From the IMG/VR virus record IMGVR_UViG_648276653_000011, positions 1-23,506 of that record: a stretch of 23,506 nt of DNA. The stretch is one strand, 5' to 3'. Within the stretch, counting starts at the first letter, position 1. Each line of letters begins with the position of its first letter. Of the stretch, positions 2,675-21,828 are shown one piece after another. The notes below the pieces were generated by a model that saw only the letters and a list, made by a program, of their open reading frames with translations, did not search any database and had not been told where the DNA came from. The DNA is from a virus. Lineage: Duplodnaviria > Heunggongvirae > Uroviricota > Caudoviricetes. A program made the translations under genes and the position numbers.

Positions 2675-3315
2675 TTGTCGGTATACCTCTCTCGTTTGCT
2701 CAGTTGTTCAGGAATATGGTGCAGCAGCTCGCCGTCACCACAGTAAATGGCGGCATGATTCGTCACCGATGAACCAAAACAGCACAGCAGCACATCGCCC
2801 GGCTGCGCCGCTGACAACGGCACCTGATACAGCCCTGTGGCCTCCAGATTATCCAGATAGAGATTCTGACCGTGACGCCACCAGTCATCCTCGCGATGAA
2901 AATCCGGCATCTCAATCCCCGCCAGATGGTAAGCATCCCGGAACAGCGTGTAACAGTCCGTCACCCCGTGCTCAAAGCGCCGCCCGGTAAGATGTGGCAC
3001 ACAGCGGAACTTGTGAATCGCCCCCCGGCAGACCAGCCACCACGGCAAATCACTCTGCACCTGCAGCCGCCTGTCGGCCTCACTCAGCCAGGGCAGACCA
3101 CCGGGGTGGCTGTGGACCAGCGCCACAATCTCACCCTGCATTTCTGCCTGCAGCCAGTCTTCCGGCGACATACGGAAATACGCCTCCGGCTCACCGGAAA
3201 TATTCACGCAGGGAAAATATCTTTCCCCCTCCGGCGCTCTCACCACGAAGCCGCACGACTCCGCTGGCGCACATCGCCGGGCGTGCGCCAGAATCGCTGA
3301 TTCTGTCTCTGTCAT
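2572..3315 (-). CDS. K: Tail tip assembly protein K (JAB/MPN metalloprotease-like plus NlpC/P60-like domains)
   Basis: Internal ATG at 3315 gives MTETESAILAHARRCAPAESCGF...; JAMM-like motif HSHPGGLPWLSEAD and NlpC/P60-like Cys context GVTDCYTLF visible; the track ORF 2572..3390 is an upstream in-frame extension that would overlap L. Confidence 0.85.
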   Translation of the reverse strand: MTETESAILAHARRCAPAESCGFVVRAPEGERYFPCVNISGEPEAYFRMSPEDWLQAEMQGEIVALVHSHPGGLPWLSEADRRLQVQSDLPWWLVCRGAIHKFRCVPHLTGRRFEHGVTDCYTLFRDAYHLAGIEMPDFHREDDWWRHGQNLYLDNLEATGLYQVPLSAAQPGDVLLCCFGSSVTNHAAIYCGDGELLHHIPEQLSKRERYTDKWQRRTHSLWRHRAWHASAFTGIYNDLVAASTFV

Positions 3316-3319
3316 GGGA

Positions 3320-4018
3320 TTACTGCGAAAGTTTGTTAATGGAAAGGAAGCCGCCAAAGTTGCCGACGTTATTGCGAAACTTACAGCCACTCAGGCATTT
3401 GCTGCATTTATCCTTCGTGATATCGGACGTCGGCTGGTCATATTCATCCGCGACAGCCGGACCGTGATAACCGCACTCATCACCGCGATAGGTCCAGGTG
3501 CAGGTATTAGCCAGCATGATACGTCCCGGAAAAACGGCACCATCCGTTTCCGTCGGTGTGGAGAGCACAAAGGAGGCACTGACCGCGCTCAGTTCGCTGC
3601 ACTGCTCGATGCGCCAGCGGCTGATCACCTCCTGCTCCGGATCGGCTTCACTGTTTCCGTTGACGAAGTTCACCGCATCCAGAAAACGGGCGTAAACCTT
3701 ACGCCTGACCACCGTTCCGCCGACCAGACTCTGCAGGTCTTCCGCCATACCGGTGACCATGCCGTGCAGGTTAGATACCTTAAGTGTGGGACGTGCGCTG
3801 CTGCCCTTACCGTTCATCTCAAAGCCGCTCCCCTGAATGGGATACTCCTGATACTGCCTCCCCTGCCAGGTAACCGGCTCACCTTTTTCGTTCTGCTCAT
3901 TACAGAAAAAATAACGTTCACCACCGACCTCTGTCAGATCGATTTCCCAGAGCACGACCAGCGCGGATTGCTCCGATTTAGTGCACTCATTGAGTGTTTC
4001 CTGCTGTATATCCTGCAT
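3320..4018 (-). CDS. L: Minor tail protein L
   Basis: 232-aa ORF MQDIQQETLNECTKSEQSALVVLWEIDLTEVGGERYFFCNEQNEKGEPVTWQGRQYQ... lambda gpL-like; ATG at 4018 overlaps the M stop (TGATG). Confidence 0.9.
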   Translation of the reverse strand: MQDIQQETLNECTKSEQSALVVLWEIDLTEVGGERYFFCNEQNEKGEPVTWQGRQYQEYPIQGSGFEMNGKGSSARPTLKVSNLHGMVTGMAEDLQSLVGGTVVRRKVYARFLDAVNFVNGNSEADPEQEVISRWRIEQCSELSAVSASFVLSTPTETDGAVFPGRIMLANTCTWTYRGDECGYHGPAVADEYDQPTSDITKDKCSKCLSGCKFRNNVGNFGGFLSINKLSQ

Positions 4019-4359
4019 CAGTGAGTGACCTCTTCAAAGGTACAGTTAAAATCGGTATACATGGCATTATCCGAAATACTCCACTCCCTGCAGACAACCC
4101 GGACGGTCCTGTTATATTTTGGCGGACGCCACAAAAAAGCACGCATCCCGGCATGACGGGATAAAAAACTGTCCAGCGCGGCACGGGAATATTCATCCGT
4201 GACACGAAATACCGGTTTAAACGTTTTCAGATCTGCATTCAGACCACCAGCCCGTCGCTGTTCATATCCGTCACCAAACTTTACCGTAATAACTGATGGC
4301 TTTCGTGTCGTCTCCATCCCCTCACGGGGGATCCAGTTAAAAACTTCAGGCTCAGGCAC
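4018..4359 (-). CDS. M: Minor tail protein M
   Basis: ...VITVKFGDGYEQRRAGGLNADLKTF... parallels recalled lambda gpM ...VRKVRFGDGYSQRAPAGLNANLKTY...; preferred start is GTG at 4359 with GGAGGA 7 nt upstream; alternative starts ATG 4374 or TTG 4404. Confidence 0.8.
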   Translation of the reverse strand: MPEPEVFNWIPREGMETTRKPSVITVKFGDGYEQRRAGGLNADLKTFKPVFRVTDEYSRAALDSFLSRHAGMRAFLWRPPKYNRTVRVVCREWSISDNAMYTDFNCTFEEVTH

Positions 4360-7300
4360 TGTACAATCCTCCATCCCGACGCGATGACTGCATAATTGAC
4401 ACAACCCTGCTGTCGATCAGATCCACCAGTCCCCTGGCTGAGCGCGCATCTATCTCGCCATTGCTCCCTTGATTCTGAATGCTGATGTGATACACGGGAG
4501 AATAAACCAACCCCCCCGCCACTATTCACATTGCCAATGGCTCTGACCCCAAGAGAGCCGTCCGCTGCCCGTGTCAGTGGCATGATAGCTTCAGGCCCGG
4601 CCTCGCCCATCAGCCCGGCGCCTTTCGCAAAAGCAAAATACGTCGGTGTATCCACAATAGTGTTACTGTAAGCACTCAGATTTGCCGATGTGTAAACACC
4701 ACCTTTTGCGTTTGCCACCGCCCCCGAAATCCATCCGCCGACCGTACCAAGCCACCATCCGGCACCGGAGAGTGACTTCAGTCCGTTAACAATGGCCGCA
4801 TTCATCAGAATTTTTGAAACTTCCTGGAGAATTGAACTCCCCCAGTTTCTCCAGTCCACAACATTTCCGGCCAGTGCATCGGAAATATTTGATACCAGCC
4901 CGTCCATAGTGGAAACGACAGCATCTGCCGCCTGCGAAGCATAATCGGTGGCACTGTCTGCCCAGTTGGTCAGCCCCTCCTGGAGTCCTGCATTCCAGTT
5001 ATTACGTAAAGCATCGGCCTTTGCATAATAATCCTGCTGATCGCTGAGACGCTCTTCCAGATATTTTTTATTCAGTTCTTTCTCCTGTTTCCACAGGGCT
5101 TCTTCAATTTCTCCGGCCTGATACTGTCTCAGCAGCTCGTTATTTTTCTGCTCAAACTCATGCCGGATACTCCACATTTCCTGGAGTCGTTCGCGCATCC
5201 GTGAGCCTTCACCATATCCCAGTAACTGCGCGTCGTTAGACGCCCGGGTACTGGCATTACTGTCCGCCAGGCTGCTTTCATACGCAGCAAGCTGCTCACG
5301 AATCTTTTTCTGGTCGATGAGTGCTGCATTCTGCAAAAGCGTTTTTTTCTGCGCTTCTGACAGGGTTGATAATTCGCCCTGACTGACCTGATATTTCATC
5401 TTAGCCAGTTCAGTATTCTGCCCTGCCAGTGCTATCTGTTCTTTTTGCTGTTTAATCAGCCGTTTATAAATATCTTCTGTTTTTTCCGCTTCGGTCTTTT
5501 TATGCGCTTTGGGTTTATTTGCCTGGTTATTTCGCCAGGCATCCAGTGAGTTATTGATATAATTCTGTCTGGCTGTCTGATACGCCTCTCCCACAAAGCC
5601 AAGATCATCCGCAGCATAGCCCAGTCGAGCACGCTCACGCGCTTCCCCCTTAAGGCGGGACAGAGCCAGTTCGCGCTTGCTGTTATTCAGTGCGGTCTGC
5701 TGTTTATCATCCAGGGTTGTCTGTGGTAGCCGTAACGGTACATTCACCAGCCCCTGTCGCTGCTGAAGTAATTCATTACCAAGCCCAAGAAGGCGATTAA
5801 ACTCGGTATGCTGCCCATTCATGATCAACAGGGACTGATACGCTTTGTTTTGTTCCGCCGCCTGTTGACGGATCAACGCAACCCGCCGCTCCTCCAGCCC
5901 GGCAAGCACATCCTGAATGGATTGCGCTTTGCCCTGCATTTGTGTGAGACGGGACTGTTCAACTGCCAGTTGATTTGTTGCTTCTGCAAGCCCTTCTGTG
6001 ACTGTTTTTACCGACGTCATGTGGTTAATCATAAAACCGTTATCGGTTGTCCAGCCCGGGTTTGCCAGCACATACTGATAGCCAGCAATTTTTTCCTGTA
6101 AGGATTTAATCTTACTTTTCTGCTCGTCAATTAACCTGTTTTGCTCATCAAGTGCCTGCCGCGTCTTTTCCTCATTATCTGACGCTTCAGGAAGCGACAT
6201 TGCCGACGTTTTCTGGCGAATTTCGTCGATTGTTGCGGCATACTGGCGTGCAGATTCTCTGGCCTGCTCCTGATTCTGATACATCGTGTACCAGGCCGTC
6301 GCCCCCAGCATGACGAGTCCCGGCACACCACCAACCAGCCCTAGCGCACCACTTAACAGACGACTCCCCACTGACGTGACAGTATTCAGCGTTGTCTGCG
6401 CCGCTGTTCTGGCCGCAATATTACGGGTAAGTGACGCCTGAGCAGCTGTCAGCTTCGCTTCTGCTGCGGCCTGCCTTTCGGTACCGCGAGCAGCAACAAC
6501 CGCCTGTTGCGCACGATAAACCGCCGCACGCGCCCTGGCGGTTGCTATCTGTGTCCCCCGAAGTTGCGCTTCAGCAAGAGCCACTTCGTTTCTGGCTGCA
6601 GTAATTAATCCGGCAGTTGCAGATCCAGCAGACGACGCCATATTGCCAAAATATCGGGCTACCCCGACGGCAACCAGTGCGCCAGCTGCAGCAGCCACGG
6701 TATCAATATTGTCTGCAACACCATTCAGCACACCGGAGAGTGTCTTTGTCACTCCGCTTGCCTCGTTCGCACCACCAACCCAGGCCATAAAGGCGTTTTC
6801 AACTTTGGTTGCAGAGGATGAAACAGTATCAGGCATTGCTGCATATTCATCACGCAACGCCCCAAGCTGACTAATCAGTGCAGGAACAACCTTATCGGCG
6901 GTCAGTTTTCCGTTATCCGCCATGGCCTTCAGATCCTTACGGGCAACCCCCATTCCCGCAGCCAGCGCACGAATAACACGATCGCCGTTCTCATTCACCG
7001 AGTTAAACTCTTCACCGCGCAGCACTCCCTGCGCCAGTGCCTGACTGAACTGCATGATCACCGAACTGGCTTCTGCTGTACTGGCACCGGATAATTTCAG
7101 GCCCGTGGAGATCGCCTCGGTGACTTTCAGTACCTCCTCAGAACTGTAACCATACTCCCGCATGGAAGCTGCAGAACGGGCAAAAAGGCTGGCGTTATCA
7201 GAAAACGCCGTCCCCGTTCTCTGGCTGATCGCCATTAATTCACGCTGTGATGCCTGAAAATCATCACTGGACTGTGAGGCCTGCTTCAGACGGGCATTTA

Positions 7301-7586
7301 CTGAATTCCACTCATCGGCGAGAGAAATAAGATGACCGGTAGCAAAAGCCCCGGCAAATGCCCCCGCCATATTCAGTGCCGAAGATTTAGCTGTATTTAT
7401 CTGATCCGTCACTTCTGCCAGTGCACGCCGCATTTCACGGGAGGCAGCAGCAGACTGTTGGCCTCCGTTCTGCATGGTGCGGTAGTAATCCTGCCCCATA
7501 CGCGAAGCCCGGGAGATCTCTGACTGGAATGACCGGGAGTTTGCCGAGATTTTAATAATCAGTTCACGTAATGTCGCCACACTCAT
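4281..7586 (-). CDS. H: Tail tape measure protein H; C-terminal ~70 codons as read are probably out of the authentic frame (see findings)
   Basis: 1101-aa ORF MSVATLRELIIKISANSRSFQSEI...; long Ala/Gln-rich coiled-coil-like body; position between G-T and M. After the G7 tract (plus-strand C7 at 4511..4517) the translation becomes Arg/Trp/Cys-rich and overlaps M by ~78 nt. Confidence 0.8.
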   Translation of the reverse strand: MSVATLRELIIKISANSRSFQSEISRASRMGQDYYRTMQNGGQQSAAASREMRRALAEVTDQINTAKSSALNMAGAFAGAFATGHLISLADEWNSVNARLKQASQSSDDFQASQRELMAISQRTGTAFSDNASLFARSAASMREYGYSSEEVLKVTEAISTGLKLSGASTAEASSVIMQFSQALAQGVLRGEEFNSVNENGDRVIRALAAGMGVARKDLKAMADNGKLTADKVVPALISQLGALRDEYAAMPDTVSSSATKVENAFMAWVGGANEASGVTKTLSGVLNGVADNIDTVAAAAGALVAVGVARYFGNMASSAGSATAGLITAARNEVALAEAQLRGTQIATARARAAVYRAQQAVVAARGTERQAAAEAKLTAAQASLTRNIAARTAAQTTLNTVTSVGSRLLSGALGLVGGVPGLVMLGATAWYTMYQNQEQARESARQYAATIDEIRQKTSAMSLPEASDNEEKTRQALDEQNRLIDEQKSKIKSLQEKIAGYQYVLANPGWTTDNGFMINHMTSVKTVTEGLAEATNQLAVEQSRLTQMQGKAQSIQDVLAGLEERRVALIRQQAAEQNKAYQSLLIMNGQHTEFNRLLGLGNELLQQRQGLVNVPLRLPQTTLDDKQQTALNNSKRELALSRLKGEARERARLGYAADDLGFVGEAYQTARQNYINNSLDAWRNNQANKPKAHKKTEAEKTEDIYKRLIKQQKEQIALAGQNTELAKMKYQVSQGELSTLSEAQKKTLLQNAALIDQKKIREQLAAYESSLADSNASTRASNDAQLLGYGEGSRMRERLQEMWSIRHEFEQKNNELLRQYQAGEIEEALWKQEKELNKKYLEERLSDQQDYYAKADALRNNWNAGLQEGLTNWADSATDYASQAADAVVSTMDGLVSNISDALAGNVVDWRNWGSSILQEVSKILMNAAIVNGLKSLSGAGWWLGTVGGWISGAVANAKGGVYTSANLSAYSNTIVDTPTYFAFAKGAGLMGEAGPEAIMPLTRAADGSLGVRAIGNVNSGGGVGLFSRVSHQHSESREQWRDRCALSQGTGGSDRQQGCVNYAVIASGWRIVQCLSLKFLTGSPVRGWRRHESHQLLR

Positions 7587-10606: not shown

Positions 10607-11824
10607 TTATTTGCCAGTGAGCGCCTTGATGGCTGCCACATCTTCCAGCACACAGTCAAAACGATGGAAAGCCAGAAATGCCACCTGATCAAACTCAGCA
10701 TAACGCTCAACCAGACGTTTCAGTTCCATATAAGTAACGCGGCGAATGATAAAGCGGTTGAAATCCCCCAGGAAAATGAATTTTTTTCCAGTACCAATCC
10801 CGTCAATAGCCTGATCAATAACATAAGGGATCCCCAGCACAGTAGCCGGCGTACCGCCTGCAATATCCGGCAGCCATAACGGGCGTTTCTGTCCATCCTC
10901 CATCTCTTCAATAGTCTGCAATGTGGCATCATTGAATACCCAGCGGTATTTCGGCCCACCACGATATGCCGGATCAATGGCATGTTTCAGGGCATTCATT
11001 TCTTTCCAGGTGAAAGCGGCAGAGGCTGCAGTCTGGATGGTTCCCGTCACCGACGCTGCCAGCCCTTTTGGCTGTAACGGTGATCCCGTTCCGGTCCCCT
11101 GAACCAGATATTTTGCCTCTCCACGACCAATACGCTGGGCAATACGGTTTGCCAGATAAGATTCAATATCCACCCCACTGTCCTGGAGCAGCTCATTGGA
11201 CACACGAATTATTTTTGATGACAGCTTTTTAGCCCCCAGAATAGCGGTCCCGAACGTCACATCCTGTTCCGTTGCGGCTGTATTTTCCGCCAGCAGTTCG
11301 CCCTCTTCAGTCGTGCCATCAGACGTTGACCAGGTGATATCCTGCCCGGTTGATGTGGTCAGAAGTTGCGCCACACTGGCAATCCCGCCATAAGCCTTCA
11401 TGGTGTCAATGATTTTGTTACGCATCTGCGTGGGCACCGTATATCCGCCCTGAGAATCCGTTGTTACACTCTGAGCCCGCAGTTCACGCATCAGATTACG
11501 CTCTTCAGCATTCAGTTCTGCAAATCCGGCACGCAGAAAACGGTTAAATGCCGCAGCACGCTTCTCTTCCACCGCCTTTTTCCCGTTCTCCGCCTCATTA
11601 TTCTGGCGCTCTTCCGGCCCGGACTCATCCACATATGCCTGATCCTGACGGCGCAACTCTTCTTCACGGGCGATTTGCTCATCCAGCGCATCCAGCTCAG
11701 CTTTCGCCCTGTTCCACTCTGCCCGTTGCTCATCAGTCCATGCGTTATCACCAATTTTTTCATGCAGTGCACGCATATCCTTTGCAATGGTGTTTCGTTT
11801 TTGCTTCATCTCATGAAGTTTCAT
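10607..11824 (-). CDS. Major capsid protein, HK97 family, with N-terminal delta (scaffold-like) domain
   Basis: 405-aa ORF; N-terminal ~100 aa Glu/Arg/Ala-rich coiled-coil-like (MKLHEMKQKRNTIAKDMRALHEKIGDN...ELDALDEQIAREEELRRQD...) followed by a capsid-like body; sits between the prohead protease and head-tail genes. Confidence 0.85.
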   Translation of the reverse strand: MKLHEMKQKRNTIAKDMRALHEKIGDNAWTDEQRAEWNRAKAELDALDEQIAREEELRRQDQAYVDESGPEERQNNEAENGKKAVEEKRAAAFNRFLRAGFAELNAEERNLMRELRAQSVTTDSQGGYTVPTQMRNKIIDTMKAYGGIASVAQLLTTSTGQDITWSTSDGTTEEGELLAENTAATEQDVTFGTAILGAKKLSSKIIRVSNELLQDSGVDIESYLANRIAQRIGRGEAKYLVQGTGTGSPLQPKGLAASVTGTIQTAASAAFTWKEMNALKHAIDPAYRGGPKYRWVFNDATLQTIEEMEDGQKRPLWLPDIAGGTPATVLGIPYVIDQAIDGIGTGKKFIFLGDFNRFIIRRVTYMELKRLVERYAEFDQVAFLAFHRFDCVLEDVAAIKALTGK

Positions 11825-13804: not shown

Positions 13805-15562
13805 TCACAGAATTAACAGGTCCTCATCAGGATCAAGCGTGGACAGAAAGTCATTCACGCCCCCGCCATTTACCAGAAAGCGGCTCATGGCTGTAAAAAG
13901 CGCAACAGGGCCGTCGATTTTTGCTTCCGGCGTGGATTTATTCGGGAAGATGTTGTCGTTTTTGTCCGGTTTTACAGTAACGTTAGACATCATCCAGTTC
14001 ATGACCGGATGATTGCTGTGATGGAAACGCCCGGCATAAACCAGTGATTCCGTTTCCTTCATGGCCTCTGACAGATTGCGGACCGTCTGCGGAACCTCCA
14101 CCAGCGGTATCCCTTCTTCAGCCAGTGCCAGGCTGAACTGCATTGCGCTCCACGGGTCAAATCCCAGTTCCCTGAGGTTTTCACCGCCAATCCATTCCAG
14201 TAAGTCACTTTTTATCTGAGCATGATCGATAACATCACCATCCGTCAGGATGAGCTTATCCATCTCCGCCCACTTCCGGTAAAGTTCTGCCTGCTGCCGC
14301 GAGCATCGTTCCAGCCGTCCTTCCGGAAGCCAGAATTTAAAATCAGCATGAACATGTCCGTTATCGGTTCGCCAGAGTTTTGCCGCCGCACAGATATCAA
14401 TCTTATGAGCAAGGTCGACGCCGACCCACATGGGATATGTTTTTAGCTCATGTTGTGGAGCAATGTATTCGCACTTCTCCCACTTAATCATATCCATCCA
14501 GGCAGATTCGGCAGTGACCCACACATTCATGTGTTTGGTAAAAAAATTCACCCGCGCAGAGACCTGCTCCTTCGCTTTTTTCGCCAGACGACGCAGATCA
14601 TCCCAGCGTTTACAGATGCCCAGGCCAGGATTCGCTTTCTGCCAGACCGTTTCATCAAACGGATCATCTCCCTCATCGAGCGTGTAAATGATCGCAAAGT
14701 AAGAGTCGTCTTTTACAGCGCCCTCCACGTCGCTGTTATAGCCTCGCAATACCTTGATGGCGTAATCACGCTGCTCGTAACAAATCCCTTCCTTGTTAAA
14801 GCCAGCCGTGGTGATACCAAATAACAGGGACTGCAGACGGGCACCGGTTGCTGTTTCCAGAACGTCCCACACGTCGCGGGTTTTATGTGCATGCAGCTCA
14901 TCAATAATGGCACAGTGGATGTTCAGACCGTCCAGATTGTTTGCATCCGAGGAAAGCGGTTCAAATTTTGATGCGCTCTGCTCCTGGTAAATCGCCAGCT
15001 TGTTGAAGTCAAACAACCGCCCGAGTGTCGACCGGGCTTTTCTGACCATATTTTTGGCGTCTTCAAACACGATTCTGGCCTGATCACGCGTGGTTGCGGC
15101 TGAATACACCTCAGCACCACCTTCACCATCTGCCCCCGTCATATACAGACCGATACCCGATGACAGGGTTGATTTTGCGTTTTTACGGGCGACTTCGTTG
15201 TACGCCGTCCGGAACCGGCGCACCATCACCGGGCGTCCACTGCCATCGCTGCGCATGACAATTTCCCCGGTCTCTTCATTCACCAGCGGAATGACAAAAC
15301 CAAAAATATTAATGAGGATAAATACATGCCAGTCCATCAGTTCAATGGGCTGGCCTGCCAGCGCCCCTTTCACATGAGGCACAAATTTGTAGAAATTCAG
15401 GATGTGCTGCGCACGGGGTTCACTGAAATAAATCCCCCGCTCTTCGCCGTACTTCAGATCATCAAGAAAACGCTGGCAGGCTAGGCGGACAAATTCGCCA
15501 GCAACAATTTCTCCTGCAACAACACGTTCGGCGTAGCGGATCCCGTCAGCCACTTTTGCCAT
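13805..15562 (-). CDS. Terminase large subunit
   Basis: 585-aa ORF MAKVADGIRYAERVVAGEIVAGEFVRLACQRFLDDLKYGEERGIYF...; size and position between TerS and portal; start overlaps the TerS stop. Confidence 0.85.
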   Translation of the reverse strand: MAKVADGIRYAERVVAGEIVAGEFVRLACQRFLDDLKYGEERGIYFSEPRAQHILNFYKFVPHVKGALAGQPIELMDWHVFILINIFGFVIPLVNEETGEIVMRSDGSGRPVMVRRFRTAYNEVARKNAKSTLSSGIGLYMTGADGEGGAEVYSAATTRDQARIVFEDAKNMVRKARSTLGRLFDFNKLAIYQEQSASKFEPLSSDANNLDGLNIHCAIIDELHAHKTRDVWDVLETATGARLQSLLFGITTAGFNKEGICYEQRDYAIKVLRGYNSDVEGAVKDDSYFAIIYTLDEGDDPFDETVWQKANPGLGICKRWDDLRRLAKKAKEQVSARVNFFTKHMNVWVTAESAWMDMIKWEKCEYIAPQHELKTYPMWVGVDLAHKIDICAAAKLWRTDNGHVHADFKFWLPEGRLERCSRQQAELYRKWAEMDKLILTDGDVIDHAQIKSDLLEWIGGENLRELGFDPWSAMQFSLALAEEGIPLVEVPQTVRNLSEAMKETESLVYAGRFHHSNHPVMNWMMSNVTVKPDKNDNIFPNKSTPEAKIDGPVALFTAMSRFLVNGGGVNDFLSTLDPDEDLLIL

Positions 15563-16044
15563 CAGTCTCTCGCTTTTAAAAGCTCCGCCAGCGGATCAAC
15601 ATCATCCGGTCCGGCGGTATTTACTTTCGCCCGGCTTGCCGGTGACATACCAAATTCTGCAAGCATCGCCCGGATCCGCTTCCAGGCATCCGCTTTCATC
15701 GCAGCAGCCGGGTGTGCCTTAATCAGCACATCACCGTTCTGCGTTTCCGTGCGGTAGGTATACCCCTCAACATCGAGTGTTTCGCAGTGATGCCGGTATT
15801 CGGTGTAGGCTTCCACCAGTAACTCGAGTGCACGCGCATCAAGCTGAGAAATGATCCCTTCCGCATTCAGTTCTTCCGCCATTCGCCTGAACCAGTACTT
15901 CCCCTGCGACCCTAAATGTTGCGGAATTTTAGGGAGACATTTTTCATCCTTTTTAGCGGTTTTTTTGGAGTCTTTAACTGGCCGCTTTGAGGGGTTACCT
16001 CGTATCAAATGCAGGCGTGGCGGGGTTTTCGGGGGTCCAGACAT
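15562..16044 (-). CDS. Terminase small subunit, P27 family
   Basis: 160-aa ORF MSGPPKTPPRLHLIRGNPSKRPVKDS... resembles the conserved P27-family N-terminus (..PKP..L...GNPGKRP..); immediately upstream of TerL. Confidence 0.75.
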   Translation of the reverse strand: MSGPPKTPPRLHLIRGNPSKRPVKDSKKTAKKDEKCLPKIPQHLGSQGKYWFRRMAEELNAEGIISQLDARALELLVEAYTEYRHHCETLDVEGYTYRTETQNGDVLIKAHPAAAMKADAWKRIRAMLAEFGMSPASRAKVNTAGPDDVDPLAELLKARD

Positions 16045-16191
16045 AATCGGTTTTACCTATCAATCATTTAATCACATTCCAAAAAAAAGTTTTCGAACCT
16101 GCGGCGATGCGAGGAAAGGTCAGGCGGCGGTACTGAACAGCCAGGGTTGCAGAGATTTGACCCGCCCCTCCCCTGCAGATGGGAGCTGTTA
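16045..16191. other. Candidate cos / packaging-initiation region in the HNH-TerS intergenic spacer
   Basis: 147-bp non-coding spacer between HNH and TerS with GC-rich inverted-repeat-like elements (gacccgcccctcccctgcag, aggtcaggcggcgg) and an A8 tract; HK97-type phages place cos between the HNH gene and TerS. Confidence 0.3.
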
Positions 16192-16542
16192 TCAATTGAT
16201 GCGTTCGCGCGCTGTTTTTGCTTTATGACAGGGCCAGCACAGACTCTGCAGGTTACTGTCTGCATCCGTGCCACCATGAGCTTTCGGAATGATGTGGTCC
16301 ACAGTTCTGGCTTCAACGGCTCTCCCATTGCGCAGGCAGTTCTGACACAGATGATTATCACGCTTCAGTATGCGCGCACGTATGGCATCCCATTTCGAGC
16401 CATAGCCACGCTGGTGGCGGCTCAGTCCGCGTTGATGCTGTACCCATCCTTCGCCACGATGTTTATCGCAGTAACCAGAACTGTCTGTGGTTGTACCTGC
16501 ACATCCACGCTTACGGCAGGCGCGTGGGATTAGTGCTGGCAT
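16192..16542 (-). CDS. HNH endonuclease (terminase-associated)
   Basis: 116-aa ORF with HNH motif ...DHIIPKAHGGTDADSNLQSLCWPCH... and upstream Cys pair CQNC; AAGGG RBS; adjacent to TerS. Confidence 0.85.
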   Translation of the reverse strand: MPALIPRACRKRGCAGTTTDSSGYCDKHRGEGWVQHQRGLSRHQRGYGSKWDAIRARILKRDNHLCQNCLRNGRAVEARTVDHIIPKAHGGTDADSNLQSLCWPCHKAKTARERIN

Positions 16543-16680
16543 GTTTCGCCCTTATATAAATCAAAGGTGACCTGCATTGAGTATCTCCATGGAATAGATT
16601 TGCTGCTGATATGAGACAGATCAATAGACTTCATGAGCCAACGGGTGTAGATATTACTTTTTACTTCAGAGGGTTAACTC

Positions 16681-17220
16681 ATGGATATTAAAGATAAAAT
16701 CAATACCATTTTGTTATGTGACATTGCCATCCACCTAGGTATCGAAACTGATATTGATCCACAGCTTGTTAAATATGCTGTGTCATCTGGTAATGATTGG
16801 GTTATCAAGGCCGAATATTCACATTTGGATGTTGACGAACCAAGTAAAGAAGATCGTGATTTTGTTACTGCTGTCTTGAATATGTATCGCGGACTTTCCA
16901 ATGCTTTCAGGAAACTTAGTGATGACGAGCAAAAAGAATTAGTCCGTGACCATCATCTAAAAATACATGATGGGGCAATTCAGCTCCCAGGTTTCGACGG
17001 TAATAATGAATGCGATTACTTCAGTATCATTGAGGCATATCAGAAAATTGATCGCTTCCCCGAACAGAAACAGCCCATTGCCAATACTCATTCACGTACA
17101 GAACATCTCTATAACGCAATGCTTGATGAGTTTAAGAAAATTGACGCTGTAAATCGAAGCTGGGATTTATCGAAGGAAGAACTGGCATCCATTCTTTCCA
17201 CAGCTCCACGCAGTTTCTAA
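16681..17220 (+). CDS. Plus-strand moron gene, 179 aa; tentatively YfbU/UPF0304-like; function unknown
   Basis: ORF MDIKDKINTILLCDIAIHLGIETDIDPQLVKYAVSSGNDWVIKAEYSHLDVDEPSKEDRDF...; visibly AT-rich versus flanking late genes; AGAGGG RBS 8 nt upstream; strand opposite to the late operon; hairpin immediately downstream. Family call is from memory only. Confidence 0.6.
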   Translation: MDIKDKINTILLCDIAIHLGIETDIDPQLVKYAVSSGNDWVIKAEYSHLDVDEPSKEDRDFVTAVLNMYRGLSNAFRKLSDDEQKELVRDHHLKIHDGAIQLPGFDGNNECDYFSIIEAYQKIDRFPEQKQPIANTHSRTEHLYNAMLDEFKKIDAVNRSWDLSKEELASILSTAPRSF

Positions 17221-17225
17221 GTGCT

Positions 17226-17492
17226 TTAGGCGGGTTTCCAACCCGCCTTATTATGCTCGTATATAGAGAAGGAAGCACCCAAATTAACCAGCGCGGATTT
17301 CTTTTCTTCAATACGGCTGTTAAGTTCAGCAACTGCATGCGGGCGTATGGCCTCAAGAAAAGCACTATATTGATAGGCAGACTGGATTGTCACACCAAGC
17401 CCTGCACCACTTTCCAGTATACCTTTCTGTCGCTGTAGCTCTTTCATCTCGTTATAGATGTAATGTGCGTTACTTAGGTTTTCTACGTTCAC
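17226..17492 (-). CDS. Hypothetical protein, 88 aa (73 aa from the internal ATG), in the AT-rich island between Rz and HNH
   Basis: ORF MNVENLSNAHYIYNEMKELQRQKGILESGAGLGVTIQSAYQYSAFLEAIRPHAVAELNSRIEEKKSALVNLGASFSIYEHNKAGWKPA; GTG start with AGGAAG ~10 nt upstream; no family recognised. Confidence 0.45.
   Translation of the reverse strand: MNVENLSNAHYIYNEMKELQRQKGILESGAGLGVTIQSAYQYSAFLEAIRPHAVAELNSRIEEKKSALVNLGASFSIYEHNKAGWKPA
17228..17248 (+). terminator. Hairpin (AGGCGGGTT-TCC-AACCCGCCT) 8 nt after the 179-aa gene stop; probable terminator
   Basis: Perfect 9-bp inverted repeat read directly, followed by TATTATG on the plus strand; overlaps the last codons of the convergent 88-aa ORF. Confidence 0.4.
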
Positions 17493-17647
17493 GCCCTAAG
17501 TTCTTCCTGCAGTTAGCCTGCACTGATTTGTTATGCGCCAATATGTCCCGCTTCGTCTGTTGCATTATCATAAGTAATAGCGTAGGTTGACACCTTGGCT
17601 CTCTTTCGCCACCGGCGAATCTTTAGCGGATTATCCTTGGCCGGTTT

Positions 17648-18130
17648 TTATCTGAGACATTGCTCACGAATGTATAGCTGTGCCCCTTCCAGTTGCTTCT
17701 GCATCGTCATCAACCGTTCTCTGAGGGTGAAATAATCCCGTTCAGCGGTGTCTGCCAGTCTGGGGCTGGTTGCATTATCCACGCTGGTGGGTCCGGTGGC
17801 TTCACGCACGGCTGCGGAGCAACTGGCATTGACCCGCAGGCGCTTACGACCAGCGGCAACATCAGCGCGCAGAGTTTCATTTTCAGCTTTCGCATTGGCT
17901 AATTCTCTCGAGTACTTTGCATCGAGCGCAGCAACATCACGCTGACGCTGCTGCATGTCAGCGATGGTGGCGGTCAGCTGCTTCAGCTCACTGACTTTTT
18001 TATCACGCTGTTCTTTGTAGGTGATGGCGTTATCACGGTAATGATTGACCGCCCACGACAGGCAGACGATGATGCAGATAACCAGAGCATAAATAATCGC
18101 GGCGACTCTGCTCACTGATCTATTCCCCAA
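17648..18130 (-). CDS. Rz: Rz i-spanin
   Basis: 160-aa ORF with N-terminal TM segment and ...[23 protein letters not shown]...[10 protein letters not shown]...[15 protein letters not shown]...TMQKQLEG... matching recalled lambda Rz. Confidence 0.9.
17710..17895 (-). CDS. Rz1: Rz1 o-spanin lipoprotein, embedded in the +1 frame of Rz
   Basis: 61-aa [25 protein letters not shown]...[32 protein letters not shown]; lipobox LVVSAC and Pro-rich body, matching recalled lambda Rz1; wholly within Rz. Confidence 0.85.
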
Positions 18131-18645
18131 CAGGCTAATGCGCTTTCTTGGTCACGACGAATAACCTGTCCATAGCAGTTATTTGAACGTATGCGGCAAT
18201 CGCGCCCACCATCTTTTATCCACCAGCGAATCGCCTCGCATGCGCCCTTACGATCACCAGCATTCAGCCGCTTATAAAACGTCGATGGAAAACACTTACC
18301 GGGGCCAATGTTATAGGGACAAAATGACGCGATACCCGCTTTTTGTGGTTCGGTCAGTGGTACTTTAATATTGCGCTCCACCCATGCCAGCGCCTTATCA
18401 CGCTCAATGGCGTTGACCTGGTCGCATTTTTCCTTCGACAGTTTCATATTGGGAAAAACGGTTTTTCCATCCACCACTGTGGCACCCCGACAGATGGTCC
18501 ATATGCCAGAACCATCGCGGTATGCCATTGTGTGGTTACCTTCTTTTTCGTCCAGAAACTGGTCAAGTATCTGAGGAGCAGATGCGCCAGCACCAATCAG
18601 CGCCAGAACGGCAGCCGACAGGCCGTATCTGATTTTTGTGTTCAT
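18112..18645 (-). CDS. SAR endolysin (phage lysozyme with N-terminal signal-anchor-release domain)
   Basis: 177-aa ORF; N-terminal Gly/Ala-rich weakly hydrophobic [23 protein letters not shown]; catalytic E-x8-D-x5-T pattern ([16 protein letters not shown]) as in phage 21 R; upstream of Rz. Confidence 0.85.
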
Positions 18646-18953
18646 ATATATTTATGATGAGGACGCTCGTGCTTATTGGCAGGATTTTCAATCTTAAAGG
18701 AGTACTGATGCTGCAGATAAGACTCAACTTTTTCTGACAATTTTTCTGCTACTTCCAGGAAGACTTGCCGGACGCTCCTTCTGGCTGCTGCCTCATAAAA
18801 CTCCAGCGCAGCTCCTTCAACACGGTCCATGGCGACATCCAGGTCAAAAATTTCACCGTCAAAGCGTTCTTTGTCCTGTAATGCTAAAGTTACCGTAACT
18901 TTATTCTCAAAATTGCGGATCCCTTTCACAATCAGTTCATAGTTTTGAGTCAT
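18642..18953 (-). CDS. DUF1327-like protein between holin and endolysin (YdfR-like, tentative)
   Basis: 103-aa ORF MTQNYELIVKGIRNFENKVTVTLALQDKERFDGEIFDLDVAMDRVEGAALEFYEAAARR...; same size and position as the gene between the holin and lysozyme in Qin-type prophages (recalled). Confidence 0.6.
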   Translation of the reverse strand: MTQNYELIVKGIRNFENKVTVTLALQDKERFDGEIFDLDVAMDRVEGAALEFYEAAARRSVRQVFLEVAEKLSEKVESYLQHQYSFKIENPANKHERPHHKYI

Positions 18954-18957
18954 TGAA

Positions 18958-19173
18958 TTACTCTCCTCTCGCAGCCTTACGCCTGTCTTCTTTAATCTTG
19001 AAATAAAGATTTGTCAGATACGTCAGCAGGCCAAAAACCAGGCTACCCAGCACACCGATTGCAGCCCACTGTGACGGAGTTACTTTATCGAGTAACTGCA
19101 ATGCCCAGAAACCAGCATTACCCGCCGATGTGCCATAGGCAACACCTGTTGTTAACTTATCCATTGATTTCAT
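18958..19173 (-). CDS. Class II (S21-type) pinholin with dual-start motif
   Basis: From the internal ATG: [71 protein letters not shown] (71 aa), very similar to recalled phage 21 S; Met1/Met4 dual start; the track ORF 18958..19248 is an upstream extension. Confidence 0.8.
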
Positions 19174-19392
19174 ATCCTCACCCCGATGTACACGGATGGT
19201 GCAATATGTTTGAAAAGATCGGAGTCTACGGGGTAGTTTTGACAGCACACGTTGTTCTCAACGGCGCTAAAAAAACATACACATTAAAAATGTGGGTAAT
19301 TATTTTGAAAGAAAATCATATATAAAATAATAATACGAGAAATGTTTTCATATTTAGTGTACTGTATACGGCCATTTATACAGGAAAAGCCT

Positions 19393-19563
19393 ATGTCAGA
19401 ACGTAAAGACTCAAAATCACGCCGTAATTATCTCGTTAAATGCTCCTGCCCAAACTGCACCCAAGAGTCAGAACACAGTTTTTCAAGAGTACAAAAAGGT
19501 GCCCTTTTGATCTGCCCTCATTGCAACAAAATATTCCAGACAAATCTTAAAGCTGTAGCCTGA
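19393..19563 (+). CDS. Small zinc-ribbon protein (56 aa from ATG; hypothetical)
   Basis: MSERKDSKSRRNYLVKCSCPNCTQESEHSFSRVQKGALLICPHCNKIFQTNLKAVA with CxxC...CxxC pairs; AGGAAAAG RBS; AT-rich; the track ORF starts further upstream at 19342. Confidence 0.4.
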   Translation: MSERKDSKSRRNYLVKCSCPNCTQESEHSFSRVQKGALLICPHCNKIFQTNLKAVA

Positions 19564-19622
19564 TTGATTTTATTAGTAACAAGTATTTTTTATATTTTAA
19601 TAATATATTTAAAGCAGATAAT

Positions 19623-19650
19623 AAAAAACCCGCCTGAGCGGGTTTGAGAT
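19623..19650 (-). terminator. Intrinsic terminator (AAACCCGC-TCAG-GCGGGTTT plus T-run), possibly bidirectional
   Basis: Perfect 8-bp GC-rich inverted repeat; on the minus strand followed by TTTTTTATTAT; ~280 nt downstream of cspB and ~60 nt downstream of the plus-strand zinc-ribbon ORF. Confidence 0.5.
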
Positions 19651-19925
19651 TGTGGTGCTTTTTGTGGGAGTCATCCACTTACGCACTTTGTTTTGCCATG
19701 CCAGCAGTTAGCTTCTGCTGTAAAACTATTCATGCAGCAAACCTGCACTTCACCACAATGGTTAGCATACTTTTCCTGATTAAGGTTTTGCCAAATATGC
19801 TGGCCATTGTTTCATGTATTGGACCTCCTTATTTTTATTAAAGAGATCCAATATTCACTACTCTGTCCGTATCTCTACTCAGGCATCAGCCTTCTTCGTT
19901 ATCGTATACAGACGAGCGATGAATT

Positions 19926-20141
19926 TTAATCAGTAATGATGACATTTGCTGCTGCAGGACCTTTAGCACCACTCTCTATAGAGAAGGTAACCTTTTGACC
20001 TTCAAATAAGGTTCGATAATTATCATTCTGAATCGCAGAAAAATGCACAAACACATCTTTACTACCATCAACAGGAGAAATAAAGCCGAAACCTTTATCA
20101 GCGTTAAACCATTTTACTAAACCAGTCATTTTATTTGACAT
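19926..20141 (-). CDS. cspB: Cold shock protein CspB-like (CspA family)
   Basis: 71-aa [74 protein letters not shown]; canonical RNP motifs KGFGFI and VFVHF; TAAGGAAT RBS. Confidence 0.9.
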
Positions 20142-20441
20142 TCTACATTCCTTAACTTGAGCCTTTCGGCATAAATGGTTTGCATAACAGAAACGACTTC
20201 GTACTTAATTGGAGAGACTCAAAGAAGGAATAAGTGAATAACACCTGAAATGAGAACTGCTTTAGTAAACTACTTCGTATATCGTCTGTTCTTCAAACCG
20301 ACGCAATCATTAACGCATAGTTGAACATATGAAGCAATGTTTATTTTAGACATCCAGCCATCTTCAACCCCATCAAAAAACTATAGCTTTCTTCAGGAAC
20401 GTGTGTATAGTGCGCCAAGTTATCAGTATTAAGGAATTTTT

Positions 20442-20654
20442 TTGTCCCGTAAAATGACAGGAATTGTCAAAACCTTTGACGGCAAAAGCGGCAAGGGTCT
20501 TATCACCCCATCCGATGGTCGTATCGATGTCCAGCTTCATGTTTCAGCGCTCAATCTCCGCGATGCAGAAGAAATTACCACCGGATTACGCGTGGAATTT
20601 TGCCGGATAAATGGTCTGCGTGGCCCTTCAGCTGCCAATGTTTACCTTTCATGA
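20442..20654 (+). CDS. cspF: Cold shock-like protein CspF/CspH family
   Basis: 70-aa [73 protein letters not shown]; apparent TTG start with AAGGAA 5 nt upstream; divergent from cspB. Confidence 0.85.
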
Positions 20655-20708
20655 GCTATATTAAAGCTTTAATTTCAGGCCCCATCGGATCACACATGGA
20701 GAGTTTTT

Positions 20709-20798
20709 ATGAATAACCCCGTCTGTCTTGATGACTGGATGATTGGCTTTAAAAGCTTATGCTGTACTTTGGCCGTAATAGCTCTGCTAATAATATAA
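20709..20798 (+). CDS. Candidate 29-aa hydrophobic peptide ORF downstream of cspF (speculative)
   Basis: GGAGAG-TTTTT-ATG context; manual translation [29 protein letters not shown] with hydrophobic C-terminal half; below the track's size cut-off. Confidence 0.2.
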
Positions 20799-20946
20799 TA
20801 AGCAGACTCATTGTGTTTAGGGACATTGTACTGGAAGAAAACATTTTAAACATCAGGCAAATAACCAAGTCACCAGCTAAATAATAAGTTAACAGACATG
20901 AGTCCCGGGATGAGATTCAACATTACCATTGCCCCATTTAAAGCAC

Positions 20947-20980
20947 AAAACCCGCTCATCAGCGGGTTTTCTACTTTTTC
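20947..20980 (-). terminator. Candidate tR' late terminator (10-bp stem AAAACCCGCT/AGCGGGTTTT), potentially bidirectional
   Basis: Inverted repeat read directly, followed by TTTTGTGCTTT on the minus strand and CTACTTTTTC on the plus strand; ~60 nt downstream of the putative pR' start. Confidence 0.5.
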
Positions 20981-21009
20981 TTAACGTCGGGTATACAAAG
21001 CCCATCGTT

Positions 21010-21050
21010 GAAAAAATTTTATCCATATTTTTTGAAAAATGCAAACATCA
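21010..21050 (-). promoter_or_regulatory. Candidate late promoter pR' (-35 TTGCAT, 17-bp spacer, -10 TAAAAT) just downstream of Q; expected Q-utilisation region
   Basis: Minus strand reads TTGCAT-ttttcaaaaaatatgga-TAAAAT (plus coordinates 21039..21044 and 21016..21021); position after Q matches the lambdoid pR'/qut arrangement. Confidence 0.45.
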
Positions 21051-21075
21051 TGTCGCCATCTTCAGCAAAAATCAT

Positions 21076-21828
21076 TTATCTCGTCACCTTCCTCAATTGC
21101 GCTTCCGCGTATGCTTCTTCCTGCCAGCACTTTGTTACCAGTTTACCAATGACGTCCGCATACCCCTTATACCACTGATAATCGGTCAGGTCTGGTACCA
21201 GCTTCTGGACATGACGTCGTGCCAGCGTGGTCGGTAAACGACTAAACCGGTTTCCATTACAACGCCCACAAATCTTATATACCGGTACGCCATGAAACCG
21301 GGTTCTTTTTTCATCCAGAACAATCCCTTTACCCTTACACCCTCTGCACGCTGTGCTGACTTCGCCCTTACCATGGCAATGCTGACATAGTTCCTTCACC
21401 CATTCTTCCTTGATTACAGATTCCCCGCGTCTGTAGTGTTTCACCACTTCGCGCAATACATTATAAAATCCCGTACCTGAACAATGCTCACAGCGAGCCT
21501 TACTTGCCGCAGACCTGGAGTAATCAGCAAAGGCAAAACTCACGAGGTAAGGAATAATCTGTAACCGGATTTCTTCACTCAATTTGTTCAATGTCGGGTT
21601 ATCCAGTGCCATCGCGTAATTTAGCAGGCCTTCAATCGCAAACTGAGGGTCCTGAACACCAACTTTTGCCAGAAATAAGGCCAACCCAAGTGGTGCTTTC
21701 GACTGCACCATCCCCTGCGCTGCCATTACATCCGTAATTGTTAAACAACCGGTGCCTGTCGCTGGAGCGTCATCGCTCAATTTTGGAGATTTTGGGGAGT
21801 AATATTTTGGTAAGGCTTCAAGGTTCAT
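21076..21828 (-). CDS. Late-gene antitermination protein Q
   Basis: ATG at 21828 with GGAG 7 nt upstream gives MNLEALPKYYSPKSPKLSDDAPATGTGCLTITDVMAAQGMVQSKAPLG...; Cys-rich C-terminal cluster (CEHCSGTG...CQHCHGKG...CRGCKGKG...CGRCNG) suggesting Zn binding; position before the late promoter and lysis genes. Confidence 0.8.
   Translation of the reverse strand: MNLEALPKYYSPKSPKLSDDAPATGTGCLTITDVMAAQGMVQSKAPLGLALFLAKVGVQDPQFAIEGLLNYAMALDNPTLNKLSEEIRLQIIPYLVSFAFADYSRSAASKARCEHCSGTGFYNVLREVVKHYRRGESVIKEEWVKELCQHCHGKGEVSTACRGCKGKGIVLDEKRTRFHGVPVYKICGRCNGNRFSRLPTTLARRHVQKLVPDLTDYQWYKGYADVIGKLVTKCWQEEAYAEAQLRKVTR

Follow-up and report, generated by a model that had tools for sequence, protein, structure and literature searches.

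A stand-alone YfbU-fold moron gene at the Rz-HNH junction of an Escherichia coli lambdoid prophage as a candidate Kamadhenu-like anti-phage gene

Kamadhenu, a 180-aa YfbU-domain protein encoded on lactococcal plasmids, constitutes a single-gene, abortive-infection-like antiphage system (Grafakou et al. 2024, PMC11381338). It blocks phages, leaving phage DNA replication, transcription and translation unaffected (PMC13064643), and phages escape from it by a G22 point mutation in a Sak-like single-strand annealing protein (PMC12184496). Kamadhenu is the only mobile member of the YfbU family that has been tested, and the literature on this family is thin.

In E. coli, yfbU has been a structural-genomics orphan for 20 years. 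Its product (UPF0304; PDB 1WPB, with 16 chains in the crystal, and 4LR3) has a two-domain helical fold and an invariant GFD..E..N(S/T/A)(H/Q) signature, and both are likewise present in the protein described here, termed ORF-A. However, E. coli yfbU forms part of the chromosomal core genome; ORF-A, in contrast, is AT-rich cargo of a prophage and belongs to a clade characterised by the motif GFDGNNE. With regard to position, the closest counterparts are lambda bor and iss, which occupy the same slot in the same orientation against late transcription, iss being located at the Rz|HNH junction in sister prophages. Bor and Iss are outer-membrane lipoproteins of ~97 aa that confer serum resistance, and lambda bor is a conversion gene expressed in the lysogen; their folds are unrelated to that of ORF-A, a soluble cytoplasmic helical protein. 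Finally, ORF-A resembles the single-protein abortive-infection defences of prophages, e.g. BstA, in that one prophage gene is presumed to be expressed in the lysogen and to act on heterologous phages, although BstA is unrelated to ORF-A in sequence and fold. For BstA a self-immunity element, aba, is reportedly known; no element of this kind was identified at the present locus.

The window analysed here, i.e. the whole stretch of DNA with a length of 23,506 nucleotides, stems from an E. coli lambdoid prophage. Its insert region matches NZ_AP022105.1 (E. coli WP5-S17-ESBL-10) at 100% identity and the record 'phage vB_EcoS-611R1' at 99.9% identity. Comparison with sister phages revealed that bases 16543-17647 are an insertion between the Rz and HNH genes (Table 1). 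In phi467, where Rz is followed by HNH with a gap of 42 bp and no insert, homology breaks exactly at 16542|16543 and picks up again at 17678; when compared to an iss-carrying relative, it picks up again at 17649. The GC content of the cargo (16543-17264) is 0.396 and that of the ORF-B core 0.447, as opposed to 0.544 for HNH and 0.530 for Rz. Moreover, only 5% of 722-bp windows are equally AT-rich, the remaining ones all being located in the interval between Q and the holin gene. Hence the AT-rich island that the initial annotation had delineated at 16543-17647 holds, with a GC content of 0.40 versus 0.53-0.54 in the flanks and an exact boundary at 16542|16543, and so do its two convergent ORFs, a plus-strand one of 179 aa and a minus-strand one of 88 aa. 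An extra gene between genes that are adjacent in related phages, with a composition distinct from its neighbours (0.396 versus 0.53-0.54), corresponds in these two respects to a moron in the sense of Hendrix and Juhala. The initial annotation had also suggested a survey of related prophages, which indeed yielded a junction that is empty or contains either iss, the bor homologue, or other small genes. An Rfam search of 16000-21500 returned nothing inside the insert, and the segment adjoining the Rz stop codon (17562-17647) contains neither an ORF nor an Rfam match.

Table 1. Positions of the features in and around the insert.
Feature	Position	Strand	Remarks
Large terminase	13805-15562	-	after small terminase
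Small terminase, P27 family	15562-16044	-	after HNH in late operon
HNH endonuclease, HK97/phiP27-type packaging module	16192-16542	-	left flank; Pfam HNH, 60.4 bits
Upstream non-coding leader of ORF-A	16543-16680	+	conserved in all HNH-linked ORF-A loci
Candidate weak promoter	TAGACT 16625-16630, 18-nt spacer ending TGt, AGATAT 16649-16654	+	8/12
Shine-Dalgarno GAGGG	16669-16673	+	7 nt upstream of ORF-A ATG
ORF-A, stand-alone YfbU-fold protein, moron cargo	16681-17220	+	179 aa; ATG start; Pfam PF03887
ORF-B	17226-17492	-	88 aa; GTG start; conserved 76-aa core at 17265-17492
GC-rich hairpin with 9-bp stem, AGGCGGGTT-tcc-AACCCGCCT	17228-17248	+	begins 8 nt past ORF-A stop
Fossil 3' end of Klebsiella/Enterobacter-type o-spanin gene	17493-17561	-	recombination scar; translates to QQTKRDILAHNKSVQANC
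Junction segment, fossil spanin tail to resident Rz stop codon	17562-17647		no gene
Rz i-spanin	17648-18130	-	right flank; Pfam Phage_lysis, 167.8 bits
Rz1	17710-17895	-	embedded in Rz; ORF with lipobox
Lysozyme	18112-18645	-	late operon
DUF1327/YdfR	18642-18953	-	late operon
P21-type holin	18958-19248	-	late operon
YnfU zinc-ribbon gene	19342-19563	+	second AT-rich zone
Rfam cspA thermoregulator, full length	19910-20302	-	158.8 bits; overlaps first cold-shock gene and reaches upstream of it
Cold-shock protein gene 1	19926-20141	-	second AT-rich zone
Cold-shock protein gene 2	20442-20654	+	second AT-rich zone

In the prophage of NZ_AP022105.1, which carries the identical insert, the major capsid gene is annotated as frameshifted (locus 6209-7425); in the window the capsid ORF is open (10607-11824, 405 aa). 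The insert is retained in a prophage that is possibly defective. The 'phage' records ON470586 and ON470583 likewise carry the insert. We did not count them as evidence of inducibility, since another member of the ON4705xx series, a sister of these two records, appears by name in a study dealing with phages that reside in the genomes of clinical isolates.

To delimit the mobile part of the insert, the contents between ORF-B and HNH were mapped in 80 viral contigs encoding ORF-B. The interval measures 244 bp at the shortest and over 3 kb at the longest. ORF-A is present in 32 of these contigs, one copy being split by an IS element, and the 31 intact copies without exception run antisense to ORF-B; three contigs contain an unrelated 192-aa antisense gene instead, and the remaining 45 assorted other small genes. 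Homology between the window and the ORF-B contigs extends through ORF-B to ~17265 and restarts at ~16547. The exchangeable cargo therefore corresponds to 16543-17264, comprising the leader, ORF-A and the hairpin, which together are the sole mobile cargo in the block, and the slot between ORF-B and HNH is hypervariable and equivalent to the position of lambda bor and iss.

ORF-B, in turn, is not cargo but part of the backbone, being a gene of the late operon with which the lysis cassette ends. The 76-aa gene overlaps the spanin stop codon in Salmonella, Citrobacter and Klebsiella prophages and is found after three different lysis cassettes. Correspondingly, of the cargo that the initial annotation had assumed at the lysis/packaging junction, the moron-type insert is substantiated by the sister phages, but it comprises a single cargo gene.

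The 155-bp gap between ORF-B and the intact resident Rz/Rz1 genes contains, just upstream of ORF-B, the fossil end of a second spanin gene. Its translation, QQTKRDILAHNKSVQANC, matches the C-terminus of the o-spanin at loci L015 and L006, and DNA homology with Klebsiella and other loci extends to 17559-17561. The fossil marks the recombination joint of two lysis-module lineages. Because this o-spanin remnant lies between ORF-B and Rz, the block comprising the o-spanin tail, ORF-B, ORF-A, HNH and terminase was joined by recombination behind the resident E. coli Rz; its source lineage is also seen in Klebsiella and Salmonella.

The slot accommodates a variety of other genes (L110-L189, ~3230-5000, between ORF-B and HNH), among them a 188-aa sense gene in nine contigs, antisense genes of 157, 161, 131, 192 and 204 aa, a 113-aa lipoprotein, and 147- and 187-aa proteins headed by a transmembrane segment. 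Ten alternative cargo proteins of the slot gave no significant Pfam or PADLOC match. Since the other slot cargo is devoid of recognisable defence domains, the location is not a proven defence hotspot.

ORF-A matches Pfam YfbU (PF03887) with 46.3 bits (gathering threshold 25, E 6.5e-12, residues 46-172), and this is the only Pfam domain of the protein. The match supports the YfbU/UPF0304 likeness proposed in the initial annotation, which had nevertheless left the protein unassigned, whereas RefSeq already names it 'YfbU family protein' (WP_000351660.1). When tested against the NCBIfam YfbU equivalog NF003936, ORF-A scored 34.8 with a cut-off of 90 and thus fails the test for a chromosomal orthologue; likewise, it resides in a prophage at a GC content of 0.39 and not at a core-genome locus. 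As judged by this score and an identity of 15-23% to chromosomal YfbU, ORF-A is a diverged paralogue and not an orthologue of the latter. In line with this, the ORF-A family profile finds a plasmid-borne YfbU-domain protein of Enterococcus with E 5.7e-14 and chromosomal YfbU with E 1.7e-9. In a superfamily alignment of 17 sequences G104, F105, D106, E110 and N135 show no variation and H137 hardly any, and ORF-A retains the conserved GFD..E and N(S/T)H signature as well as the complete two-domain all-helical fold of 1WPB. The N-terminus, MDIKDKINTILL, forms part of a helix in the structure model, and the protein is soluble, cytoplasmic and helical, without a signal peptide. It gave no Bor/Iss Pfam match, and tblastn with Iss across the ORF-B loci found none either. 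The motif GFDGNNE is common to ORF-A and a broad clade in many phyla on mobile elements.

Considering its size, domain, fold, stand-alone architecture, carriage on mobile elements and lysogenic-conversion position together, we suggest that ORF-A is most likely a Kamadhenu-like anti-phage protein, a tentative reading to which we assign a probability of roughly 45%. Phage exclusion is the best-supported reading because a single-gene antiphage system with a YfbU domain has been described (PMC11381338). Like Kamadhenu, ORF-A is a single gene of ~180 codons with YfbU as the only domain and no obligatory partner, and it is carried by mobile elements, namely prophages of E. coli, Klebsiella, Salmonella, Enterobacter and Providencia and a conjugative plasmid of Kosakonia. 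In contrast, the Kamadhenu protein, designated pUCCL624_130 (BioProject PRJNA1086404), is encoded on a lactococcal plasmid in a Gram-positive host and ORF-A on an enterobacterial prophage, and their likeness is one of description, not of sequence alignment. In addition, tblastn of ORF-A and the Enterococcus YfbU protein against PLSDB, together with a protein search using the latter as query, retrieved no Lactococcus sequence. Further support comes from distant relatives, some of which adjoin an FRG-domain gene matching PADLOC PDC-S15, and from the slot, where iss/bor occurs in the same junction of relatives. Moreover, Table S10 of DefensePredictor, which covers 3000 E. coli strains, includes two other 'YfbU family protein' genes, coding for 173 and 183 aa, among its predictions of novel defence genes (log-odds 5.99 and 4.78, strict cut-off 4); the accession of ORF-A does not occur in the portion of the tables covered here.

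In terms of mechanism, ORF-A would protect the lysogen against other phages by single-gene abortive infection of the Kamadhenu type. It would sense the recombination protein of the incoming phage or its DNA intermediates, and would respond by stopping a late step or by killing the cell, with the conserved GFD-E-N-H patch as the candidate functional site. The YfbU family and the RefSeq name are known already, and the precedent for the role has been published in another phylum. If the reading is correct, a single-gene defence has gone unrecognised in ~4% of sequenced E. coli as well as in many prophages of Klebsiella, Salmonella, Enterobacter and Providencia, and PADLOC 2023 contains no matching model for it. 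The YfbU fold would then also be accessible in the phage-host system that is most tractable; since the lambdoid recombinases (Red-beta, RecT, Erf and Sak types) are well defined in E. coli, both its trigger and its effector step could be identified there. A more far-reaching version, in which the ORF-A clade acts as an immune sensor widespread among enterobacterial prophages, its YfbU fold detecting the recombinases of incoming phages (single-strand annealing proteins) or their DNA intermediates and triggering abortive infection, with core yfbU as a domesticated relative and the late gene ORF-B possibly shielding the prophage's own lytic cycle as well, appears distinctly unlikely to us.

ORF-A is found in 224 of 5426 complete E. 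coli genomes, always on the chromosome. It is intact in 223 of these carriers, and 223 also contain the whole 1.4-kb stretch with the insert. In the remaining genome, NZ_CP142949.1, ORF-A is matched in part only, in two places, and in one viral contig (L141 3271-4601) a 326-aa transposase gene of an IS element interrupts it. The split and the partial copy are occasional inactivations. Compared with the Klebsiella and Salmonella copies, ORF-A shows a dN/dS of ~0.12 at a dS of ~0.25, and ORF-B a dN/dS of 0.2-0.3 at a dS of 0.4-0.6, indicating that both are real genes under purifying selection. The synonymous sites of the adjacent HNH gene are saturated (dS >1.3). The low dS of ORF-A therefore shows that the cargo was passed between phages after their backbones had diverged.

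ORF-A occupies the same site, in antisense orientation, in three module contexts. In E. coli, Klebsiella and Salmonella it accompanies HNH and the P27 terminase; homologues in Enterobacter (58% identity) and Providencia (50%) lie antisense between the spanin genes and a lambda-like Nu1/gpA terminase. Among the homologues of 50-60% identity one is carried by the Kosakonia conjugative plasmid. No conserved partner gene of ORF-A was found across these contexts.

More remote members were observed elsewhere. The P2-like Yersinia phage vB_YenM_324 (Peduoviridae) encodes a YfbU-like protein with 32% identity to ORF-A (L190 4956-5534) near its right end, past the tail-fibre genes, which places the family on a non-lambdoid temperate phage as well. 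The Enterococcus faecium plasmid CP006623 (L028 5998-7035) carries a 172-aa YfbU-domain gene (Pfam, 119.5 bits), followed after 6 bp by an unannotated 170-aa gene, with resistance and IS genes nearby; by tblastn this YfbU-domain gene is present at an identity of at least 99% on ~148 plasmid records, mostly from Enterococcus. At 28 of ~76 distant YfbU-like loci (25-35% identity) a ~166-aa protein is encoded directly upstream on the same strand, which suggests a two-gene operon. This partner has an N-terminal transmembrane helix and is found in Pseudomonas, Psychrobacter, Arcobacter, Bacillota and other hosts; it matches nothing in Pfam or PADLOC, and the E. coli prophage lacks it. The FRG-domain gene adjoins six distant YfbU-like genes (L048, L065, L087, L096, L101, L105), and its product matches the PADLOC candidate defence family PDC-S15 with 273 bits.

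We then considered how ORF-A may be expressed. A consensus promoter scan detected no plus-strand site upstream of the gene. The candidate promoter in the leader, which features an extended -10-like TG and scores 8/12 at a threshold of 9/12, is conserved in the HNH-linked ORF-A loci. Downstream of the gene, the region of the GC-rich hairpin folds with -20.1 kcal/mol (z = -3.0), and its stem displays a compensatory change between lineages (GGCGGGTT/AACCCGCC versus GGCGGGG/CCCCGCC). The hairpin is found in loci with YfbU cargo and is missing where other cargo sits. Its U tract, UUAUUAUG, is poor, and a terminator scan passes over the hairpin because it has no T run. Based on these sequence features, it is the probable terminator of ORF-A. 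The initial annotation had correctly recognised the 9-bp stem but placed it between the two ORFs, whereas it falls within the final codons of ORF-B. The promoter and terminator consensus scans yielded counts no higher than in shuffled sequence. From the antisense orientation and the analogy with bor/iss at this junction in relatives, we infer that in the lysogen a weak promoter of its own would drive transcription of ORF-A in the direction opposite to that of the late operon, as far as its own hairpin.

The overlap of hairpin and ORF-B results from a stop-loss (TTAA to TATA) that adds 12 codons (17226-17264) read through the hairpin. The relatives encode 76 aa, the length of 88 aa is specific to this lineage, and the 12 added residues are modelled with low confidence. 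ORF-B itself is conserved and soluble, with a helix at 3-28, a loop ESGAGLGVTIQS and a helix at 39-70, and would be a small helical-hairpin protein in its own right, transcribed together with the lysis genes. Its family comprises ~95 clusters of roughly 75-aa proteins, none of which is annotated, and a structure search was uninformative; the position of the gene points to a late function linked with the end of the lysis cassette. In addition, we observed a sigma-70-like site on the minus strand (GTGTCA, 18-nt spacer, GATAAT; 17593-17564; 9/12), 72 nt upstream of the ORF-B start. Such a site is within chance expectation for the region, and it could drive ORF-B independently of the late promoter.

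Alternatively, ORF-A may be a lysogenic-conversion factor that tunes death or survival of the host cell not upon phage infection but after DNA damage, a condition that also induces the prophage; we consider this rather unlikely. Chromosomal YfbU, reportedly a MazF 'death protein', is reported to be required when cells die in a mazEF-linked manner upon DNA damage: an E. coli ΔyfbU strain survives DNA damage like a ΔmazEF strain, and YfbU is selectively made after induction of MazF (PMC2646832). The connection of the chromosomal protein to cell death after DNA damage, and not to phages, counts against the anti-phage reading; likewise, ORF-A has retained the fold and the invariant motif, and the slot also harbours non-defence conversion genes such as iss. 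However, the identity to YfbU is only 15-23%, the host already possesses yfbU, the YfbU-like family is borne by phages and plasmids across many phyla, and the sole member tested from a mobile element is antiphage. If ORF-A is not defensive, it would be an ordinary lysogenic-conversion moron.

A contribution of ORF-A to the phage's own lytic cycle, either in lysis timing or as a packaging accessory of cos or the HNH-terminase module, is suggested by its invariable location at the lysis/terminase junction. We regard it as very unlikely, since ORF-A invariably runs antisense to the late operon, close sister phages that share its HNH-terminase module lack the gene, the terminases found beside it belong to two unrelated types, it is also carried by a conjugative plasmid, and its composition is foreign.

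Prophage defences such as BstA require self-immunity. This general consideration, together with the adjacent and convergent arrangement in E. coli, Klebsiella and Salmonella, would be compatible with a functional pair of ORF-A and ORF-B, for instance a toxic effector made in the lysogen and a late immunity factor sparing the phage's own lytic growth. Such a pair, which the initial annotation had implied by treating the convergent genes as joint cargo, is highly improbable. The two genes co-occur in 32 of the 80 ORF-B loci, and the other 48 contigs carry other cargo or none beside ORF-B; ORF-A homologues of four genera lack it, as a search with the ORF-B profile found nothing within 4-6 kb of those in the Enterobacter, Providencia, Kosakonia and Yersinia elements. 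Moreover, the two genes differ in dS. We therefore rejected the pair, and in the absence of consistent co-occurrence the locus does not qualify as a two-gene toxin/immunity or TA-like system.

Finally, a decaying remnant without function, which the initial annotation had envisaged, is scarcely credible: the fossil spanin fragment, the stop-loss of ORF-B, the IS-split copy in one viral contig and the partial match in one of 224 E. coli genomes would fit it, but it is largely refuted by the dN/dS values of both genes (~0.12 and 0.2-0.3) and by the conservation of ORF-A, which is intact in 223 of the 224 genomes and conserved across genera.

Apart from the insert, the window contains a second AT-rich cargo zone between Q and the holin gene (19342-20654, GC 0.38), which harbours the YnfU gene and the two cold-shock protein genes (Table 1) and has a layout like that of the Qin prophage.
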